From: a virus | Length of the DNA stretch: 39,456 bases | Virus genome (UHGV): UHGV-0205415 | Direction: 5' to 3' (one strand) | Shown: positions 2,822-32,951 of the stretch, in pieces | Layout of the letters: each line of letters starts with the position of its first letter | Numbering within the stretch: the stretch's first letter is position 1 | Translations under genes and position numbers: made by a program | The notes under the pieces: model-generated | What the model was told of the DNA's origin: nothing | What the model saw: only the letters and a program-made list of their open reading frames with translations | The model's database searches: none

Positions 2822-3979
2822 ATGCTCACCGTTAAGCAGATTGAAGCAGCAAAGCCGAAAGAAAAACCATACCGCCTTCTCGATGGTAATGGCCTGTACC
2901 TTTATGTTCCTGTATCCGGGAAAAAGGTATGGCAGCTTCGCTACAAGATTGACGGTAAGGAAAAAATACTGACCGTCGGAAAATATCCGCTTATGACTTT
3001 GCAGGAGGCAAGGGATAAAGCATGGACCGCGAGGAAAGACATCTCGGTTGGCATCGATCCGGTAAAAGCGAAAAAGGCTTCGTCTAATAACAATTCCTTT
3101 AGCGCCATTTACAAGGAATGGTACGAGCACAAGAAGCAAGTATGGTCAGTAGGGTATGCGACTGAACTTGCCAAAATGTTTGATGACGACATTTTACCCA
3201 TCATCGGCGGCCTTGAGATTCAGGATATTGAGCCGATGCAACTGCTGGAAGTAATCCGCAGATTTGAAGATCGCGGTGCAATGGAGCGAGCCAACAAAGC
3301 CCGCAGAAGATGCGGCGAGGTTTTCCGTTACGCTATTGTCACCGGAAGGGCTAAATATAACCCAGCACCTGACCTTGCTGACGCCATGAAAGGATACCGC
3401 AAGAAGAACTTCCCGTTTCTTCCAGCAGACCAGATCCCTGCATTCAACAAAGCACTGGCAACATTTTCAGGAAGCATCGTATCGCTCATTGCGACCAAAG
3501 TTTTACGCTACACAGCCCTAAGAACGAAAGAGCTTCGTTCCATGCAATGGAAGAACGTCGATTTTGAAAACAGGATTATCACTATCGACGCCAGTGTGAT
3601 GAAGGGCCGCAAGATTCATGTTGTTCCTATGTCAGACCAGGTGGTTGAACTTCTCACTACGCTAAGCTCCATCACTAAACCAGTATCAGAGTTTGTTTTT
3701 GCCGGGCGCAACGATAAGAAGAAGCCAATCTGCGAGAACGCGGTATTGCTTGTGATCAAACAAATCGGCTATGAGGGTCTGGAAAGCGGTCACGGATTCA
3801 GGCATGAATTCAGCACGATTATGAACGAGCACGAATGGCCTGCCGACGCCATTGAAGTGCAACTGGCACATGCCAACGGCGGTTCTGTGCGCGGGATTTA
3901 CAACCATGCTCAGTATCTCGATAAGCGCAGAGAAATGATGCAGTGGTGGGCGGACTGGCTTGATGAGAAGGTGGAGTGA
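2822..3979 (+). CDS. int: tyrosine site-specific integrase (Arm-binding N-terminal domain type); alternative GTG start at 2786
   Basis: MLTVKQIEAAKPKEKPYRL N-terminus, C-terminal HxxR...Y catalytic region typical of phage integrases. Confidence 0.9.
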   Translation: MLTVKQIEAAKPKEKPYRLLDGNGLYLYVPVSGKKVWQLRYKIDGKEKILTVGKYPLMTLQEARDKAWTARKDISVGIDPVKAKKASSNNNSFSAIYKEWYEHKKQVWSVGYATELAKMFDDDILPIIGGLEIQDIEPMQLLEVIRRFEDRGAMERANKARRRCGEVFRYAIVTGRAKYNPAPDLADAMKGYRKKNFPFLPADQIPAFNKALATFSGSIVSLIATKVLRYTALRTKELRSMQWKNVDFENRIITIDASVMKGRKIHVVPMSDQVVELLTTLSSITKPVSEFVFAGRNDKKKPICENAVLLVIKQIGYEGLESGHGFRHEFSTIMNEHEWPADAIEVQLAHANGGSVRGIYNHAQYLDKRREMMQWWADWLDEKVE

Positions 3980-4059: not shown

Positions 4060-6057
4060 TTATATTGCAGATATTATAAAACATAATAATTCTTCATATC
4101 TTATTCCATATCGCTCACCCCCTTCTATAGATATTCTGCGTTCTCCAGTATCATATTCAATTAATTTTTCATCACCGGATTCTTCATCAAAAATTATCTT
4201 TTTAGCAATTACTGGTTCGTATTCAGTTTCCCATTTATCATAGCAAAAAAGACCATAGTCGTTTGCATCAAGCCCTTCTTCAGCAAATGCTTTATATACA
4301 TCTTGGGCAATAATGCCAAAATGTAATCTAGCATTTTCTCCTTTTTCAATTACTGAATCTATAAATCTAAAACAACAAACCAAACCCTTTATTTTATATG
4401 CAACACGTCTCTCTGCATCAGTAATCGGTCTTTTATCAGTCTTAACTCGACCATCCGATGTGTTAATCGTTGAAGTGCCAGCAAATATTGTATTCCACCT
4501 TCTGGATGCTGAACCGCAATTTCTAGCGTTATCTGTTGCTGGTTGTACCGACGCATCAAAACGAGCATAATTATTCTCATCAGAAACAGGTCCCATCAAT
4601 CCACTCAAAAAAGGGAGCCCGCTCTGATTAGCAATTATTAATTGGTTGTCACCTGAAGAAATTGCCGAACCGGCATTGGTTCCGATAAATATATTACCTG
4701 TTCCAGAGCTTAACGATCTACCAGATCTATATCCAAGCATTACATTGTTACTTGCCGAACCAATAGAATTAAGTGAGTCGGCTCCTACTGCGACATTATT
4801 CATCCCTGTAGATGTGCCTGTATAAGGGTTATCTATAGAAGAAATCCCTCTTCCTGATCCGCTACCAATATATGTATTGTTATCTCCATTTGTAATCTCC
4901 CTTCCGGATGCATTGCCTATAAATGTGTTATTATTTAGAATGTTATAAGACAACCTTTTGCCTGATTGGTCTGTAACAATTCCAGCTCGCATTCCAGCCG
5001 CTCGACCTATTGCAACATTACCACTACCAGTATGAAGTTGTTGTAATGCACTTGATCCTACTGCAACATTAAAATTTCCTTCTTTATTTTCATTTAGGGC
5101 ATCGCGCCCAATTCCAATTATGTTACTAGCTGTGGTTGATTTTTTGCACGCATTCACACCAATTGCTACAATCTCAGTGCCAGTGCATGGCGATGTATCT
5201 GTGAGATCGTCTTGAAGGGTATCACCTGATAATACACCTGTCCCAATTGCTGTAATGTTATTGCCCGTGCTAATGTTTCTTCCTGCACTTGGTCCAATCG
5301 CAACAACTTGCCCGGATATATCATTTCCATTATATATCTTGCCAGCATCAAAACCAAAAAAAACATTTCCAATTGTCTGAGCAGGATTTGCAAATGGAAT
5401 AGGTTCGTCTCCTTTACTTTGTATTATTTTACCAGGGCCATAAAATTTTCCATTAATATAGTTCTCAATTAAATAAGTACCTTGTGGAACATAAACACCG
5501 TCAGGTGAAACTGAAGATGCATAGGAAAATATATGTGTTGCGTCAATATTGCCATTAACAATGTCGCTAACATCTTCATGTTTTACAAAATCAAGAATAC
5601 TAATATTCTCTGCATTTTTATCATGCTGTGTTCGTTTTGTAGAATTAATTAAAGGTTGTTTTACTGTGATTAATGAATCACCAAGCCCATCATCTGAACT
5701 TAAAAGTTCTTGCCTTAACTGATCCGGGTCATACTTCAGCACATTAGGAAAATAAAACTGCTGCGCACCATATGCATCATAAACAGCCATAGAATGGCCT
5801 TGCACAGTTACGAACTTGGCAATCTGTCCGTTATATACCGGATATCCGGCAGCGTTAATGATTATTGGTTGCGAAACAGGAATGTGAGAACCGTCTTCGT
5901 TCTCTACATAAACCTGAATCTGGTTTTCAGGATTTACCGGGTCAGTGTCAATTTTACCGATATAAATTTTGCCATTGGCTACGGCTTTAAAAGAACGCGC
6001 CATAGTGAAGAGTTGCGAAGGCATACTCACTACAACATTGGCTGTAATGTCTGTCAT
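4060..6057 (-). CDS. tailspike protein: P22 gp9-like head-binding N-terminus, repeat-rich central domain, C-terminal S74-type intramolecular chaperone domain
   Basis: N-terminus [11 protein letters not shown]...[11 protein letters not shown]...VTVQGHSMA...LKYDPDQ matches P22 tailspike head-binding domain (recalled); C-terminus resembles autoproteolytic chaperone of endosialidase/tail fibers. Confidence 0.85.
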
Positions 6058-6683: not shown

Positions 6684-7411
6684 TATGCAACATTACTCCC
6701 ATGAATCAGGTGTTGTAGTGCTTTAACACCTTCCGCATTGTAGCGGAATGCTTCCACCTGTTTGCTGGAATGCGCAGATTTATCCAGGAAGAACTTACCG
6801 TACTGCTCAGTTTTGAGGTTGTTTGCGTTAGCAATGCGACCAATCTTGTTGGCCGTTACTCCAAGCTGCTCTGCAACCTCCCCTGCTGAGTAGTAATGCT
6901 CTTCTATTGCTGGAAGAGGTATTGCATTAAAACCAACGATCGGGTTTATTATGCTTGCTGCCGCAGTCTGCTTTGCTTCCGGCGCAAGATTTGGCATCAA
7001 ATCGAACAGATTGGTAACAGCTTCAACCGTCATTTTCAATGTTCGCGCCTGGCGATACTCAACAAGTCCACTCGACGATTTACCGCTTTTAATGTGCGCT
7101 TCTTGCATACTTTCAAGTTGGTCTACAAGTGAGCGGCGAACAGCTTTAGATTCACGAGCAGCCACTCGAAGGGCTTGCTTAATTGACATAACAACTTTTT
7201 CAGAAGTTGTCTTGTTTGATTTTTGAACTACGAAAATTTCGTAGTGCTCACCTTCAAGTTCATCCTTAATGCGTGCAATAAAGTCGTTATTGCGGACTTC
7301 TTTTTCCCCGCACTGTCTACGAGCATGATTGACCATCTCTAACAGGTACTGGCTATCAATGGTTTTATCCGTGACAACGGATCCGATGTTTGCTACATTC
7401 TTAAAAGTCAT
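6683..7411 (-). CDS. Rha/antirepressor-family regulatory protein (tentative)
   Basis: ORF 6683..7462; ATG at 7411 with AAGGA RBS; domain resemblance to phage Rha/KilA-C antirepressors (recalled, moderate). Confidence 0.5.
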   Translation of the reverse strand: MTFKNVANIGSVVTDKTIDSQYLLEMVNHARRQCGEKEVRNNDFIARIKDELEGEHYEIFVVQKSNKTTSEKVVMSIKQALRVAARESKAVRRSLVDQLESMQEAHIKSGKSSSGLVEYRQARTLKMTVEAVTNLFDLMPNLAPEAKQTAAASIINPIVGFNAIPLPAIEEHYYSAGEVAEQLGVTANKIGRIANANNLKTEQYGKFFLDKSAHSSKQVEAFRYNAEGVKALQHLIHGSNVA

Positions 7412-7449
7412 TAGGCATTCCTTATGTGGTAGTAAGGGTGTGACATAGG

Positions 7450-7480
7450 CCGCCAGCAGCACACTGGCGGTTTTCTTTTT
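7450..7480 (+). terminator. plus-strand intrinsic terminator-like hairpin inside the minus-strand antirepressor operon
   Basis: CCGCCAG-cagcaca-CTGGCGG followed by TTTTCTTTTT. Confidence 0.3.
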
Positions 7481-7499
7481 GCGCCGTCCGGCGCACCAA

Positions 7500-8138
7500 T
7501 CAATGAATCCATTCCTCGCCGCGAAGTTTTGCCAGCATTGGCTGAGCGTTCTTTACGACAAAATTGTTGGTATCAAGATTCTTCATTTCACGAAGAAGTG
7601 ATTTCTTGGTTTCTTCTGACATGTAGCGAGTCTCATATGCAATATCGTAAATCCTTCCAGAAAGCTCAGAACCAATTTGCTTCATTCCTGGGTAGATGTG
7701 TTTGCACATTTGTTGACTCTTCTCCATCCACAATTGTAAGTAGCAGAGATTAACCAGCTCTTCGTCAGTAAACTGTTTTGCAATCGGTGAGCATTCTGCC
7801 TGCCGATCCAAAATATCCAGCACCCAGCGGCGGAACTCTTTGGCCTTGGGCGTAGAAGCAAACATCGCCACCAAGTGAGCGCCTCGGAGCGAGTAAACTC
7901 TGACCGATTTGTTACGTAAGCTATTGTTTATCCCGTTGACCTTCATATTGAGGGTCAATGACATTGAGTCGGAAAACTCGTCAGCATTACGGGCATAAAT
8001 TTGGCTGATGGCATCAGTTTTTTTATAGCCGAGAGCCTTAGCTAGTTCGGTGGAGGTAAACCAGATAGACCCACCCTCTGTTACAGGGTTAAAGGTGAAT
8101 CCTTGGAAGTTATAATCTGATTTTGCTACAATGTTCAT
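7500..8138 (-). CDS. ant: antirepressor with BRO-N-like domain
   Basis: ORF 7500..8222; ATG at 8138 with AAGGAAA RBS; BRO-N-like segment FTSTELAKALGY...VRVYSLRGAHLVAMF. Confidence 0.7.
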   Translation of the reverse strand: MNIVAKSDYNFQGFTFNPVTEGGSIWFTSTELAKALGYKKTDAISQIYARNADEFSDSMSLTLNMKVNGINNSLRNKSVRVYSLRGAHLVAMFASTPKAKEFRRWVLDILDRQAECSPIAKQFTDEELVNLCYLQLWMEKSQQMCKHIYPGMKQIGSELSGRIYDIAYETRYMSEETKKSLLREMKNLDTNNFVVKNAQPMLAKLRGEEWIH

Positions 8139-24817: not shown

Positions 24818-25212
24818 GTCTTACCCCCAATAAGGGGATTTGCTCTATTTAATTAGGAATAAGGTCGATTACTGATAGAACAAATCCAGGCTACTGTGTT
24901 TAGTAATCAGATTTGTTCGTGACCGATATGCACGGGCAAAACGGCAGGAGGTTGTTAGCGCAACCTCTTGCCACCCGCTTTCACGAGGTCATGTGTAGAA
25001 GTCCGCAGCGTAACTATCACTGATGAATTCAGGATAGCCAGTGGCTACGGCTCAGTTTGGGTTGTGCTGTTGCTGGGCTGCGATGACGCCTGTACGCATT
25101 TGGTGATCCGGTTCTGCTTCCGGTATTCGCTTAATTCAGCACAACGGAAAGAGCACTCAATGCATTTAAGCCAAGCCCCATAAGGGAGAATGCTCTTACC
25201 TGTTGCACAGGT

Positions 25213-25270
25213 ATAAAAAATCCCGAAACCGTTATGCAGGCTCTAACTATTACCTGCGAACTGTTTCGGG
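25213..25270 (-). terminator. tR' terminator of the short pR' (6S) transcript
   Basis: CCCGAAAC...GTTTCGGG stem followed by TTTTTTAT on minus strand; matches lambda tR' region as recalled. Confidence 0.75.
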
Positions 25271-25407
25271 ATTGCATTTTGCAGACCTCTCAGCCTGCGA
25301 TGGTTGGAGTTCCAGACGATACGTCGAAGTGACCAACTAGGCGGAATCGGTAGTAAGCGCCGCCTCTTTTTATCTCACTACCACAACGAGCGAATTAACC
25401 CATCGTT
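25213..25407 (-). ncRNA. 6S-like short pR' transcript (about 190 nt)
   Basis: Distance from predicted pR' start to tR' matches lambda 6S RNA length. Confidence 0.55.
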
Positions 25408-25442
25408 GGGTCAAATTTACCCAACTTTATTCAAAAAGTCAA
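25407..25442 (-). promoter_or_regulatory. late promoter pR' (-35 TTGACT, 17-nt spacer, -10 TAAATT) with adjacent qut region
   Basis: Hexamers read from sequence; region matches lambda pR' as recalled. Confidence 0.7.
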
Positions 25443-25484
25443 TATCATGCCGTTAATATGTTGCCATCCGTGGCAATCATGCTG

Positions 25485-26108
25485 CTAACGTGTGACCGCA
25501 TTCAAAATGTTGTCTGCGATTGACTCTTCTTTGTGGCATTGCACCACCAGAGCGTCATACAGCGGCTTAACAGTGCGTGACCAGGTGGGTTGAGTAAGGT
25601 TTGGGATTAGCATCGTTACAGCGCGATATGCGGCGCTTGCTGGCATTCTTGAATAGCCGACTCCTTTGCATCTTCCGCACTCTTTCTCGACAACTCTCCC
25701 CCACTGCTCCGTTTTGGCTATATCAACCGCACGGCCTGTACCGTGGCAATCTCTGCATCTTGCCCCCGGCGTCGCGGCACTACGGCAATAATCCGCATAA
25801 GCGAATGTTGCGAGAACTTGCAGTACCTTTGCCTTAGTATTTCCTTCAAGCTTTGCCACACCACGGTATTTCCCCGATACCTTGTGTGCAAATTGCATCA
25901 GATAGTTGATAGCCTTTTGTTTGTCGTTCTGGCTGAGTTCGTGCTTACCACAGAATGCAGCCATTCCGAATCCGGCCTGTGATTGCGCCATCCCCATAGC
26001 AGCCATCACATCAGTACCGGAAAGAGAGTCAGAAGCCGTGGCCCGTGGTGAGTCGCTCATCATCGGGCTTTTTGGCGAATGAAATTTAGCTACGCTTTCG
26101 AGTCTCAT
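25485..26108 (-). CDS. Q: late gene antiterminator Q
   Basis: 207-aa protein essentially identical to lambda Q as recalled. Confidence 0.95.
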   Translation of the reverse strand: MRLESVAKFHSPKSPMMSDSPRATASDSLSGTDVMAAMGMAQSQAGFGMAAFCGKHELSQNDKQKAINYLMQFAHKVSGKYRGVAKLEGNTKAKVLQVLATFAYADYCRSAATPGARCRDCHGTGRAVDIAKTEQWGRVVEKECGRCKGVGYSRMPASAAYRAVTMLIPNLTQPTWSRTVKPLYDALVVQCHKEESIADNILNAVTR

Positions 26109-26293
26109 CGTCTTCCTCTCTTGCCCTGTTTGACCATCAGGACGCCGTTAACTATTACGTGACGCTCGCCTTTGCTGTCTCGGTTGTACTTGAGCACTGT
26201 TCCTCTTGCGCAGGAAAGCATCCTCGCCACTTCGGTCTGATTGCCTCGTGTCTGGATAAGAAGCTCTGGTATCGTTTGAATTGTGGCGTTCAT
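26105..26293 (-). CDS. ninH: NinH-like protein
   Basis: TIPELLIQTRGNQTEVARMLSCARGTV resembles lambda NinH. Confidence 0.8.
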   Translation of the reverse strand: MNATIQTIPELLIQTRGNQTEVARMLSCARGTVLKYNRDSKGERHVIVNGVLMVKQGKRGRR

Positions 26294-26652
26294 ACGTTCT
26301 CCAGTTCGGTGATTTTTATTCCAAGCCGTCCGCCTGGTACTTTCACACCACGAATTACGCGAATGTCATCGAATTGCTCGTCGTCTTCCGCAAATCAGGC
26401 GTGGATAAGGGAGTCGAGTAAACCTTTCAGGATGTTATCGAGGTCGCGGCGGCGGGAGTCTGGAACGTCTGCGATGACTTTGATGCGGAGTCGTGATTTG
26501 GTGAAAATGTCTAACTTAAGTTGGCGGATGATTTGCTGAACGTCTTTTCGGTATTTCTGGCCTTTATCGCTGATGTAGTATTGGCTTCCCCGTCTTCGCC
26601 AGTAGGTATTCACCGACGGCGGGTATGGAAGCACAAACTGATATTCGTTCAT
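26290..26652 (-). pseudogene. rusA: rusA-like Holliday junction resolvase interrupted by in-frame TGA at 26395..26397
   Basis: 85-aa ORF matches RusA N-terminal part (DSRRRDLDN motif); the same frame continues after TGA for 33 codons resembling the RusA C-terminus and ends overlapping ninH start. Confidence 0.7.
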
Positions 26653-26939
26653 GGCTTAATCTTCCCCTCCTTCAGTAGTATCGCCTGCGTCCTGATCACG
26701 CCTTCGAGGTGGTAAAGTCTGGCGTCTTTGTTGTCGAGAATCCTTGTGCGTCGGTCGATCTCCGCGTGGCAGTCACTACAAGCCCATGCACCGATCAGGT
26801 CGTCAGGCTTCATTCCCGTTCCGCAAATTCCAGCCATCCGGTAATGTGCCAGAACTGTAGTTTCAGGGTTGCCATTGCATACGCCGTAAATACGTACCTG
26901 GCATTCTCTGCCGCGCGCTTCTTTGCGTAGGTTAGCCAT
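26649..26939 (-). CDS. DUF1364/YbcO-like protein
   Basis: ECQVRIYGVCNGNPETTVLAHYR...CSDCH pattern as in DLP12 YbcO (recalled). Confidence 0.65.
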   Translation of the reverse strand: MANLRKEARGRECQVRIYGVCNGNPETTVLAHYRMAGICGTGMKPDDLIGAWACSDCHAEIDRRTRILDNKDARLYHLEGVIRTQAILLKEGKIKP

Positions 26940-27664
26940 TAAGCAGCCTCCCCTGTTACTTTCAGCATTCCGTTATCGAGCAGCTTTCTGGTCAGCCACT
27001 GTTGACCACGCCCGGTGATTTTTGTAGTGAACGATATCTGTATTCCGTGATTTGTGTTGACCGCTGTTTCTTTCACTGTGAAATAGCCGCGATCCATATA
27101 TTCCTGCATTGGCACATTGCGCCGGGAACCTGAAGCAATAAGGATTTTGTGATCGCGCATCCACGCAAACAGTTTGTTTTGACCAATTCCAACAACCTTT
27201 GCAAAGTTTCCAATCAAAATTCCACTGGCCTCGCCAACGCGATCGGCAAACTCAACTTTAGGTGCGGCAATTGCGAGCTGGTTTTCCAGTTGCATTTTCT
27301 GCTCAGCAAGATCAGCAGCAAGGCGCAACGCTTCCGGTAGCGTTTTGGGGATATTAACCGCAGCTTCTTCAAGCTCTCGCCAACGGTCAACAAGACGAGC
27401 GGTGAACTCTGGCGACAACTGGGCAACGACAATAATGCTGTCTCGCTTTCCTTGTTCGCCCTCGAAGACGTAGAAATCACGCCTCCCGGTAATAACACAT
27501 AAATCATTGATTATGTTAGTGTGCTGCAATGCAGGAGGCTTGATAACGCCACGTTTCACCAATCTATCTATGGATACTTTTACATTGCTATGGCGGCTTT
27601 CTACCAACTCAGCGATTTCAATGCTTGTCATTTTGATGGCATTGCCATTTATTAACTCATTCAT
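26939..27664 (-). CDS. Rha/KilA-C type antirepressor-like regulatory protein
   Basis: N-terminal Rha-like region and C-terminal KilA-C-like region (recalled). Confidence 0.6.
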   Translation of the reverse strand: MNELINGNAIKMTSIEIAELVESRHSNVKVSIDRLVKRGVIKPPALQHTNIINDLCVITGRRDFYVFEGEQGKRDSIIVVAQLSPEFTARLVDRWRELEEAAVNIPKTLPEALRLAADLAEQKMQLENQLAIAAPKVEFADRVGEASGILIGNFAKVVGIGQNKLFAWMRDHKILIASGSRRNVPMQEYMDRGYFTVKETAVNTNHGIQISFTTKITGRGQQWLTRKLLDNGMLKVTGEAA

Positions 27665-29596: not shown

Positions 29597-32062
29597 TCAG
29601 AATCCTCCTTTCTTCTTGGACTGCGGTTCCTCGCGTTCACGGCGGCGCATTTCAGCAGACTGTTGGTCTGTGTCATAAATAGCGCCATTTGCCTGAATGC
29701 AATACACCGTGCCGGTATTGCCATGACGATTGAGACGAAGGATTAGTTCGGTTTCACCAGGTGGAACACTGTCATCAAAAGCACCTTCACGATGGATCCC
29801 CACCCAATAATCGCAATCCTGTTCAATCTGCCCTGTATCTCGTGAGTCACTTGGTAATGGGCGTTTATTGGTTCGGCTTTCCAGTGCGCGGTTAAGCTGC
29901 GTCAGAAGCACAACAACGCAATCAAGCTCTTTGGCAAGGTTCTTCAGTCCTTTGGTGATCATGCCGTAAGCAAGGTCGTTGCGATCGGCCTTCTCAGCGG
30001 TCATTAGTGTCAGGTAATCGACCAGAATCATGCCAACACATCCTTTTTCTCGCTTGATTCGACGGCTTTCGCTAACGATTTGAGCCAGAGATAATCCCGG
30101 CGTGTCGTCGATGTAAAGCAGGTCGATTTCACTCAAACGATTAGCTGTTTCGATCGCCCTGTTGAAGTCACCATCGTAATCACCCTGATAGCCGTCATCA
30201 GCGTCATTTGTCGCCGGAAGGTAAAAAATATTCGGGTTAACACCAGACTTCTGCCCTACCAGTTTTTCCAGTATCTGATCACCTGGCATTTCAAGGCTGA
30301 ACATCAGAGCGGGCTTTTTCTCATGCACTGCGCAGTTGATTGCCATCTGGCTGTATAGCGTGGTGTTGTGGGTTAGAATGTATCCGTCAGTTGCATACAA
30401 ATGTCTCTCGTGGGATACCATGATGCAAATGCACTCTTCACGTCCAATATACTCAACCGACGTGATAACAGGCGCACTTGTTTTGATGCGTTTTGCAGTG
30501 AATTTTTGCTTCAGGCGTGGAGATTTTATGTGTGATAGAACCTCATCAGGCAACCTGATTGCGCAAATATGGGCATCCATACCTTTGCGCATTTCTCCCT
30601 TATAACTGAATTTCGGCTCCTGTTTGGTTGTCATACGACACACGCCACCAAGAGAATGCACCAGCCGCTTTACACCATCTGACAGGAACTTGCTTGCCGA
30701 GCTAAAGCGCAGGGCATTATTTCCTTCAACCCAACCATCGGTTTCAAGTAATCCGCATAGAACATCAATACGAGTTTGCTTATCAGCAGAAAAAATAATA
30801 TCCGGGATAATTTTAATCTCTGACATCCGGCCGTAGATACCAAGCCGTTGCATAACCCGCGTAAGAGATAATTTGCGGCTAAACTTGTGAGATAGGGAGT
30901 AATCGCAGCCAGAAACATGCCTGACTTCAATATCGTCACCCACTTCAGATCTTACTCGCTCAATGATGTATGGTTCCGTCATGCTGATTCGTGGCGTACC
31001 TGCAAGATTTCCATCGCCAAGTAACGCACCTAACAGCCATGGGCTAATCCCTAAATCAACAGGCAATCCGAAGTCACCGCTAATACCAGGAACATGAATG
31101 CGGCTTTGATAGCGAACGCATTCCATCATGTCCCGTAGGCGGCAGGTGTCTACAACATCAACGCCACCGGTAATACGGTTACTATGAATTTCCCACAAAT
31201 GATCATCCGCGCAATCAACGGTTCTTCCGTCAGAGAACGTAACTCGGTAAATATCTCGCTCCCCTTGAGGAAAAACTCCAGACACGAATGATGGTTGTCC
31301 ATCCACTGATGCTAGGGAATCTCCAACACATACGTCACGAAATGTTGTCCATGAACCATCAGCAAGCAAAATGCGTGAATTAAGCGGTTGCGCTTTCCCC
31401 ATCTTAGGGCGAGCGCCAATGACAAACAGAGAGCCTTTCACCAGACCTTTCGGTGACAGCATCCTGTCCAGCGATGGGATCCCTGTGCTCATTCCTCGTT
31501 GTTCGCCTGACGGGTCAAATCGCTTCTCAAGGTCGCTAACCCAGTCTTCCATGACCTCACCAAATGAGCGAAGGCCGCGACGCGATCCGGTTTTTGCATG
31601 GTCTGTCAGTTGCGTGAAAATCGCCTGAATAGCTTCGTACTTCTGCGTTGCAGTCATTCCGTTGCGGGAATAGAGCAATTCCGTCGCTTCAGTCATGCGG
31701 TTGATGGCGTAGCGTTCCATTGCGGTTTCACGAACCTGCATTGCATAGGCAACGATGTTTGCTGCGCTTGGCGTGTTCTTTGCGATCTCAGCGATATAAG
31801 CAAAACCGCCAACAGACGCCGTTAACGATTTACGCTCCAGTTCATCGAAAAGCGTCAGGCCATCTACTGGCTTTTGCTCCCGGTGCATTCTGGTTATTTC
31901 TTCGAAAAGGATTTTGTGTGGTCGGCAGTAAAATGAATCAGGCTTCAGCATCGCCAGAACTTTCTGGACGCGCTCACTGCTGTCATCATCCAGAAGCAAT
32001 CCACCAATCACCGCCTGCTCTGCCTCGATGCTATGGGGCGGCGCATAAAAATTATCGGTCAT
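29597..32062 (-). CDS. replicative DnaB-family helicase interrupted by an intein
   Basis: ORF 29597..32077; ATG at 32062 after GAGGGTG; DnaB motifs GARPKMGK ... TTLYSQMAINCAV ... LMFSLEMP flank a 343-aa insertion. Confidence 0.85.
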   Translation of the reverse strand: MTDNFYAPPHSIEAEQAVIGGLLLDDDSSERVQKVLAMLKPDSFYCRPHKILFEEITRMHREQKPVDGLTLFDELERKSLTASVGGFAYIAEIAKNTPSAANIVAYAMQVRETAMERYAINRMTEATELLYSRNGMTATQKYEAIQAIFTQLTDHAKTGSRRGLRSFGEVMEDWVSDLEKRFDPSGEQRGMSTGIPSLDRMLSPKGLVKGSLFVIGARPKMGKAQPLNSRILLADGSWTTFRDVCVGDSLASVDGQPSFVSGVFPQGERDIYRVTFSDGRTVDCADDHLWEIHSNRITGGVDVVDTCRLRDMMECVRYQSRIHVPGISGDFGLPVDLGISPWLLGALLGDGNLAGTPRISMTEPYIIERVRSEVGDDIEVRHVSGCDYSLSHKFSRKLSLTRVMQRLGIYGRMSEIKIIPDIIFSADKQTRIDVLCGLLETDGWVEGNNALRFSSASKFLSDGVKRLVHSLGGVCRMTTKQEPKFSYKGEMRKGMDAHICAIRLPDEVLSHIKSPRLKQKFTAKRIKTSAPVITSVEYIGREECICIMVSHERHLYATDGYILTHNTTLYSQMAINCAVHEKKPALMFSLEMPGDQILEKLVGQKSGVNPNIFYLPATNDADDGYQGDYDGDFNRAIETANRLSEIDLLYIDDTPGLSLAQIVSESRRIKREKGCVGMILVDYLTLMTAEKADRNDLAYGMITKGLKNLAKELDCVVVLLTQLNRALESRTNKRPLPSDSRDTGQIEQDCDYWVGIHREGAFDDSVPPGETELILRLNRHGNTGTVYCIQANGAIYDTDQQSAEMRRREREEPQSKKKGGF
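30365..31393 (-). mobile_element. intein with LAGLIDADG homing endonuclease motifs inserted in helicase Walker A (P-loop)
   Basis: Insertion between GK and TT of P-loop; ends in THN with Thr as +1 residue; LLGALLGDGN and LCGLLETDGW motifs; begins with Ala (no Cys/Ser nucleophile). Confidence 0.75.
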
Positions 32063-32951
32063 CGTGTTCACCCTCACGAACTTTCAGGTAGGTATTATCG
32101 TTAAGCAGGAAATCAAATCCCTTTTTGTGCCAGACGGTTCCGCGCTGATGGTTTGGGCGCTCTTCGAACATCCATCGGCAATTTTCGCCTACGTAGCTCA
32201 AATAATTTCTCCAGTCCTGCATCGTGAACCCATGCCCGTCAAGCTGGCGGGTTATCACTCCGGCTTTGCGCCAGAACGTTCGGATCTGGTTTTTACGCTT
32301 GTCATTCAGTGCGCGGATTTTTGGCGCTTCAGGAAGGATTTCGTGGTAAGCATCGACAACATCCTGACAGCTAACGGAAGGTTTTTTCTTGTCAGACTTT
32401 TTGTCTGCTGCGGTACTCTCTAATACGTCAGTATTAGAGATAATATTATTATATTCTTTATCTGTGGTAATTTGCTGGTAATCTGCTGGTACAGTATTGC
32501 TTGCAGGCATTGGTATTGCTGGCTTTGAGGTGGTAATTTGCTGGTAATCTGCTGGTACAAAATTTGACTGATAATCGTCATATTTCTCTACCGAGAAAAC
32601 TGAGAATTTACCGTGTGAAACCCAGTCAATCATGCCGAGTTTTTTGAACTTTCTAAGCAGGTACTGAACGCGATCTGGTTTGAGTCCTGTTTCAAACGCC
32701 AGAGAGTTTCTACCGCCAAGTAGCTTCCCTCTGCCTACCAGAATTTCTCCTGCGTCAGTCATTACATACTCAGGCGTATGCTTTGCTTTGAGGATTAAGT
32801 GAACCCACAGATGCGCAGCTTCTGCGTCCTTGTAAAACGGCACATCCATAATTTTACGGTGCAGCAAGGCATACCCCTTACCGCTGCTTTGATGCGGTTG
32901 TTGTAGCCTTCTGGCCTCTCTGGCTTCGGCTAGATTAGATATGTTACTCAT
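32052..32951 (-). CDS. replication initiator (O / P22 gp18-like) containing origin iterons
   Basis: Position upstream of helicase; internal DNA iterons encode repeated peptide [10 protein letters not shown]. Confidence 0.6.
32420..32565. repeat. candidate origin of replication: two identical 29-bp repeats (32465..32493, 32531..32559) built from TGCTGGTA-type iterons plus adjacent AT-rich tract
   Basis: Direct repeats and AT-rich stretch 32425..32460 read from sequence. Confidence 0.6.

Follow-up and report, generated by a model that had tools for sequence, protein, structure and literature searches.

The Holliday junction resolvase gene rusA, an accessory gene of the phage genome UHGV-0205415, which was analyzed over its whole length of 39,456 nt (referred to as the window), carries an in-frame TGA in place of the glycine codon at position 86. 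We consider this TGA86 to be an ordinary loss-of-function allele and not a recoding signal, with a probability of roughly 0.8. It is a nonsense allele of a well-characterized family at a well-known genomic position and, as such, nothing categorically new. In terms of annotation, the locus is best treated as a pseudogene or a nonsense allele of rusA rather than as a gene for a short RusA protein or a recoding site.

The window represents an E. coli phage with a mosaic, P22-like (Lederbergvirus-type) genome, which is matched best by phiv205-1, Kapi1, E212, HK620, and CUS-3 (95 to 97% identity across about half to two thirds of the query). The integrase gene adjoins the tailspike gene, so the window reads as a whole phage genome and not as a chromosomal prophage with host flanks. 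Pfam matches of the neighboring genes place rusA within a lambdoid nin region, in the order ybcO/DUF1364, rusA, ninH, upstream of the Q gene (Table 1), and the end of ybcO overlaps the start of rusA as ATGA. The same nin gene order is found in phages Gally, phiv205-1, and Kapi1, as well as in Escherichia coli 631.

Table 1. Coordinates of rusA, its parts, and its neighbors in the window
Feature	Position	Strand	Basis or remark
rha/ant-like antirepressor	27664..26939	-	Gene order
ybcO/DUF1364, intact, upstream of rusA	26649..26939	-	Pfam YbcO, 148 bits
rusA, with premature stop	26652..26290	-	ATG 26652..26650
rusA codons 1-85, surviving ORF	26398..26652	-	Pfam RusA; alignment to 1Q8R
Premature in-frame TGA, rusA codon 86	26395..26397	-	Reads 'tca' on the + strand
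rusA codons 87-120, untranslated remnant	26293..26394	-	Translation; matches commonest intact allele
Natural rusA TGA	26290..26292	-	Forms ATGA with ninH ATG 26291..26293
GGAG Shine-Dalgarno-like motif, inside rusA remnant	26299..26302	-	5 nt upstream of ninH ATG
ninH, intact, downstream of rusA	26105..26293	-	Pfam Phage_NinH, 85.7 bits
Q-type late antiterminator, intact, last in early-right operon	25485..26108	-	Pfam Antiterm, 192 bits

A preliminary description of this locus, which used plus-strand numbering for the minus-strand gene, had interpreted the 85-aa ORF as the N-terminal part of RusA ending at the in-frame TGA (26395..26397) and the frame past this TGA as resembling the RusA C terminus. 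Profile comparisons bear out both statements. The ORF scores 45.4 bits against the RusA domain (Pfam ID PF05866), over positions 1 to 93 of the 124-position profile, and the read-through product, with the stop replaced by Gly, scores 62 bits over positions 1 to 123; the family cut-off is 22.8 bits, and both forms qualify as members. The E. coli RusA (PDB ID 1Q8R) aligns with the window without gaps over residues 1 to 119 (E = 3e-26), and the stop falls on its Gly86, in line with the GGA-to-TGA change that had been proposed. After TGA86, the rusA frame runs for 34 more sense codons, to the natural TGA that overlaps ninH. The ATGA overlap had therefore been described correctly, whereas the numbers given for the remnant and the intact protein, 33 codons and 119 aa, need to be corrected to 34 codons and 120 aa. 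The protein encoded by the 3' remnant is identical to residues 87 to 120 of the commonest intact allele, which rules out a chance pattern of ORFs.

Residues D70, D72, K76, and D90/D91 are critical for the endonuclease activity of RusA, and its cation site consists of D70, D72, and D91 (PMC1636454). The 85-aa ORF keeps R69, D70, D72, and K76 but not D90 and D91, which are encoded in the remnant together with Q93, G108, and the β-strands formed by residues 94 to 101 and 109 to 117. In an alignment of 47 homologues (44 to 88% identity), D91, Q93, and G108 are invariant, and G86, D90, F94, D95, I97, R101, G102, G107, R109, and I114 show a conservation of 90% or more. AlphaFold2 models the intact allele, with a mean pLDDT of 89, as strand 3-9, helix 14-17, strands 18-21 and 24-27, helix 29-44, strand 54-62, helix 71-84, and strands 94-101 and 109-117, with the position of the stop directly past helix 71-84. 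Thus, the gene belongs to the RusA family, and its product fails two defining features of that family: the full catalytic and cation-binding set (D70, D72, K76, and D90/D91) is not contained in one polypeptide, and the full α/β fold of about 120 residues is not attained, as its last two strands lie beyond residue 85. Since TGA86 removes one catalytic acidic residue and two strands, the 85-aa product would be catalytically dead and probably unstable. It is predicted to be unable to form the metal-binding active site, which would leave the phage without a resolvase of its own, and it probably fails to fold.

The changed base is at position 26397 of the plus strand, with A in the window and C in its relatives (a G-to-T change at position 256 of the coding strand). 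Codon 86 is GGA in the sequences of phages Gally and HZ41 aligned with the window, and a search of IMG/VR with a 29-mer that had N at the variable base returned G at this site in 122 of the 122 matches listed (at least 120 contigs). An 81-bp probe centered on the stop has matches in 941 complete E. coli genomes and 52 phage records; the 81-bp stretch is 100% identical in none of the 941 genomes and none of the 52 records, and the best matches listed have 80 of the 81 bases identical. The exact TGA-bearing 29-mer is absent from IMG/VR and from GTDB contigs (one genome per species), and the exact TGA-bearing 22-mer is absent from JGI metagenomes. Apart from codon 86, the RusA of the window is the commonest protein allele, found in 20 of 116 relatives from IMG/VR, and its DNA is the same as that of an intact haplotype, L092, except for position 256. 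Because the rest of the gene equals L092, the stop can be attributed to a single G-to-T transversion on the coding strand. The comparison with related phages, which the preliminary description had called for, accordingly gives good support to a recent nonsense mutation, the first of the three readings that it had offered: GGA is found in every relative examined, including Gally, HZ41, and all 122 IMG/VR matches listed, and L092 is one base apart. Sporadic nonsense alleles of rusA are not rare, at about 2%: two of the 116 IMG/VR relatives (among loci L003 to L122) have other nonsense codons, in place of K46 and S53, respectively.

An exact-sequence look-up of the 85-aa product in a collection of about 15 billion proteins finds it on 23 contigs; the protein is also present in NCBI as DAF70657.1, under the RusA family name. 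In five of these contigs (L125 to L129), rusA is internal to the contig. These carriers are contig JAEOLH010000027 of GCA_019365005.1, from NCBI, and four SRA-derived contigs, from SRR5633156, SRR27214094, SRR34443511, and SRR31716310. Each of the five reads TGA at codon 86 and retains the tail and the ninH overlap seen in the window, with rusA at positions 3001-3363 of its locus. A mutation private to the window can therefore be dismissed, the same TGA being present in five other assemblies. The remaining contigs among the matches listed contain partial genes cut by contig ends, an artefact of the exact protein length that was looked up; one of these genes has GG at codon 86. Five contigs that end exactly at codon 85/86 (L130 to L134) are meaningless in this respect, as proteins of just that length are what the look-up selects; partial RusA proteins also occur at many other lengths.

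The six carriers, including the window, represent four haplotype groups: the window, L125/L127, L126, and L128/L129. Within rusA the groups differ at 3 to 8 sites, and the 835-bp ybcO-rusA-ninH block has 51 differing sites; none of the groups is another's nearest neighbor. Compared with the window, the other carriers have 3 to 6 further base differences within rusA, flanks that are 93 to 98% identical, and different neighboring modules, with either a 207-aa Antiterm-type Q or a 172-aa Phage_antitermQ and with Dam present or absent. The two members of the L125/L127 pair differ at 23 of 4088 aligned bases and those of the L128/L129 pair differ at 10 of 3727 bases, with the TGA common to both members in each case. 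Because both non-identical pairs share it, TGA86 has been inherited in nature and is not only a miscall. A rare synonymous T at position 240, 16 bp upstream of the TGA site, occurs in four of the six carriers, against 5 of 118 copies with an intact gene (Fisher p = 2e-4, or 0.016 with the two pairs collapsed), which suggests a common origin of TGA86 in L125/L127 and L128/L129. Because the window and L126 lack 240T, TGA86 must have had one or more additional origins or else have been transferred on a very short conversion tract. TGA86 is, then, a real, rare, and partly recurrent allele.

These data also bear on the second reading, a sequencing or assembly error. Here the T would be a consensus miscall of a true GGA codon, in a phage genome that was probably assembled from a metagenome. 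Only one base is substituted, and G-to-T is a known class of oxidative-damage artefact; however, five independent assemblies contain the same T, and within two pairs of related, non-identical phages it is inherited. Although the allele is missing from the 941 complete E. coli genomes, 52 phage records, IMG/VR, GTDB representatives, and JGI metagenomes, and is known only from draft or Logan short-read assemblies, the true differences of the window from its nearest relatives amount to 1 to 4% per site, orders of magnitude above the consensus error rates of short-read assemblies. Further, the rest of the window shows no frameshift or coding-strand stop relative to its relatives. In tblastn comparisons of 1781 ORFs from 124 related loci with the window, coding-strand stops within high-identity alignments were seen in rusA only, and there were no frameshifted alignment pairs. 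General decay or low sequence quality of the window can be rejected on these grounds. Near cII, an apparent stop turned out to precede the true start of the gene, whose ORF matches Pfam positions 1 to 91 of 91. An error at codon 86 is accordingly quite unlikely, given that the same TGA is inherited in other phages and no other gene has a stop or frameshift; in the case of the window, a genuine mutation is far more likely.

The same base change on four backgrounds may reflect a mutational hot spot, gene conversion, or chance in a very large sample. The window offers no mechanistic basis for a hot spot and no support for a templated mutation or ectopic gene conversion: the mutated 16-mer occurs in it only once, its next best match having 3 mismatches, which is within chance, and there are no inverted repeats of at least 7 nt within 200 bp of TGA86. 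The consensus rusA sequence allows 50 single-step nonsense changes at 40 codons, and a handful of TGA86 occurrences among about 15 billion proteins, retrieved by a one-allele look-up, is not clearly above chance. If TGA86 were over-represented among nonsense alleles, a hot spot or selection against RusA activity would be indicated. We regard it as very unlikely that G256T is something other than random decay, recurring on at least four lambdoid backgrounds either through a hot spot or because a truncated or attenuated RusA is advantageous; the advantage may then lie, for example, in restraining a nuclease that damages certain hosts or in interfering with the resolvases of co-resident prophages.

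Even less probable, to the point of being extremely unlikely, is a selected truncation in which the 85-aa fragment is functional itself, for example by binding junctions without cutting them or by poisoning the full-length RusA dimers of co-resident prophages. Selection of this kind would account for the recurrence of this particular nonsense change on four haplotype groups that are not mutual nearest neighbors, but part of that recurrence is explained by shared descent, with 240T linked to the stop in four of the six carriers, and the huge size of the searched database adds to it. Likewise, the fragment retains R69, D70, D72, and K76 but is devoid of two core strands of the fold. The allele is also very rare, with no instance in five large collections, and the exact-match look-up picks out one allele, so its output is no evidence of an excess over the other 49 possible single-step nonsense changes.

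The third reading in the preliminary description, low-level readthrough of the UGA, holds only insofar as any UGA may be read through at a basal rate of a fraction of a percent, which can be presumed here as well; nothing indicates that it is programmed or selected. A functional leaky stop would mean that UGA86 is decoded by tRNA-Trp or another near-cognate tRNA to provide a useful low dose of full-length RusA with a substituted residue 86, the stop serving as an expression attenuator. The 34 downstream codons are indeed intact, in frame, and terminated by the normal ATGA, but an intact downstream frame is expected anyway of a young mutation, and the identical downstream sequence sits after GGA in all relatives. 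Similarly, the same TGA recurs on several backgrounds but is not conserved, being found in 0 of the 122 IMG/VR matches listed, 0 of the 941 E. coli genomes, and 0 of the 52 phage records. Although UGA is the leakiest stop codon of E. coli, the fourth base here is U, and UGA-U is reportedly, from work by Poole et al. in 1995, the most efficient UGA termination context in this organism. The importance of the fourth base for termination is documented, as is the dependence of termination at UGA on the RF2 allele, with non-K-12 RF2 terminating better at this codon (PMC5373646); the latter dependence would leave some room for a leaky stop.

Other features of the locus also argue against recoding. 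The folded RNA, 121 nt from just before the stop to the gene end (the stop plus 105 nt downstream), has a minimum free energy of -30.6 kcal/mol compared to -28.1 +/- 3.3 kcal/mol for shuffled sequences; it folds no better than shuffles (z = -0.76), which disposes of a readthrough-stimulating RNA structure. The window contains no tRNA genes detectable by ARAGORN, and TGA is an ordinary stop in this genome, closing 24 of the 56 long ORFs, among them both neighbors of rusA (including ybcO) and the natural rusA end. A suppressor tRNA or an altered genetic code can thus be set aside. In addition, Gly86 is at least 90% conserved, so a Trp at this position may not be tolerated. The locus accordingly displays neither a conserved in-frame stop nor a leaky context or stimulatory downstream RNA structure, nor a suppressor tRNA or UGA reassignment, as would be expected of programmed readthrough, and we find a functional leaky stop highly improbable. 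A split gene with re-initiation was considered as well and rejected: the sole in-frame start past the stop is the GTG codon 103, which is not preceded by a Shine-Dalgarno motif and would yield a C-terminal piece of fewer than 20 residues.

The allele is best explained as an ordinary loss of function with the following history. A single G-to-T change turned the GGA codon for Gly86 of the standard 120-aa lambdoid RusA into TGA, so that translation would stop after residue 85 and no phage-encoded resolvase would be made. This loss is probably tolerated, given that the nin genes are dispensable for plaque formation and that the host RuvABC and RecG are capable of processing Holliday junctions. The ninH gene would be translated from its own ribosome-binding site, GGAG; the location of this motif 5 nt upstream of the ninH ATG implies that ninH need not depend on ribosomes coming from rusA. 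N-type antitermination should protect transcription into Q across roughly 100 untranslated nt, and TGA86 is predicted to have no polar effect on either ninH or Q. The allele is also present, at very low frequency, in other prophages of the lambdoid and P22-like types, partly through descent and partly through recurrence or short-patch recombination; a rare, partly inherited, and partly recurrent pattern is what would be expected for a weakly deleterious or neutral null in an accessory gene.

The dispensability of the nin genes is well documented. Phage lambda still forms plaques when its entire nin region is removed, and none of the nin genes proves essential in individual knock-downs as long as Q is supplied (PMC10695390). 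In P22-like phages, the nin genes, with rusA as the junction resolvase among them, are likewise non-essential; they are tightly packed, with ATGA overlaps (PMC8022706). TGA86 represents a further case of an accessory nin gene lost from an otherwise intact temperate phage, which fits this dispensability.

Among the known systems, the RusA of the E. coli K-12 cryptic prophage DLP12 (PDB IDs 1Q8R and 2H8C/2H8E) belongs to the same family, has the same length of 120 aa, and carries R69, D70, D72, and K76 at identical positions. It is about 44% identical to the protein encoded in the window, in which codon 86 is a stop located before D90/D91 and the last two strands. The rus/rusA genes of HK620, HK97 (gp67), HK022, CUS-3, Kapi1, Gally, phiv205-1, and many E. 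coli prophages show 97 to 99% DNA identity to the window gene and occupy the same slot between ybcO/DUF1364 and ninH, with ATGA overlaps at both ends. Where annotated, they are listed as intact 363-nt genes with GGA at codon 86, in contrast to TGA in the window. The lambda Rap (NinG) protein, a structure-specific endonuclease encoded at the equivalent nin position, is an analogous accessory recombination nuclease that belongs to an unrelated family and is missing from the window. The nin region that encodes it is the dispensable one of lambda (PMC10695390).

Several other observations concern parts of the window outside rusA. The gap between Q and the holin gene (24818..25484) is without a tRNA gene, whereas Kapi1 has tRNA-Asn and tRNA-Thr there. 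The 665-aa tailspike (4060..6057, minus strand) combines a P22-type head-binding domain at residues 1-113 with a C-terminal Peptidase_S74 'chaperone of endosialidase' domain at residues 534-596; this self-cleaving-chaperone type of tailspike is unlike that of the closest genome relatives.

The gene for a DnaB-like replicative helicase (32077..29597, minus strand; 826 aa) contains a 343-aa in-frame insert (31393..30365) that sits exactly inside the Walker A motif (GARPKMGK / AQPL...YILTHN / TTLYSQ). Fourteen relatives encode an intein-free 478-aa helicase, and the intein-free forms match at 96 to 100% on both sides of the insert. The insert has a domain matching LAGLIDADG_3 (25.1 bits) and, weakly, a match to Hom_end_hint; it begins with Ala instead of Cys or Ser and ends with His-Asn, followed by Thr. 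The combination of an Ala start and a His-Asn end is the pattern of class 3 inteins known from phage helicases, and the insert is a probable class-3-type intein with a homing endonuclease. A split or disrupted helicase gene was rejected, the insert being in frame and an intein. At the megablast level, the intein DNA has no match in 50,697 phage records; it is found at 99% or higher identity in 18 of 5426 complete E. coli genomes. In the one example inspected, E. coli 631 (NZ_CP040263.1), the RefSeq/PGAP annotation lists the helicase exteins as separate 'incomplete' pseudogenes (positions 5332-6000 and 7030-7797 of the extracted locus, L135), and the 1029-bp intein is without any annotated feature. 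This is probably a misannotation of a functional gene.
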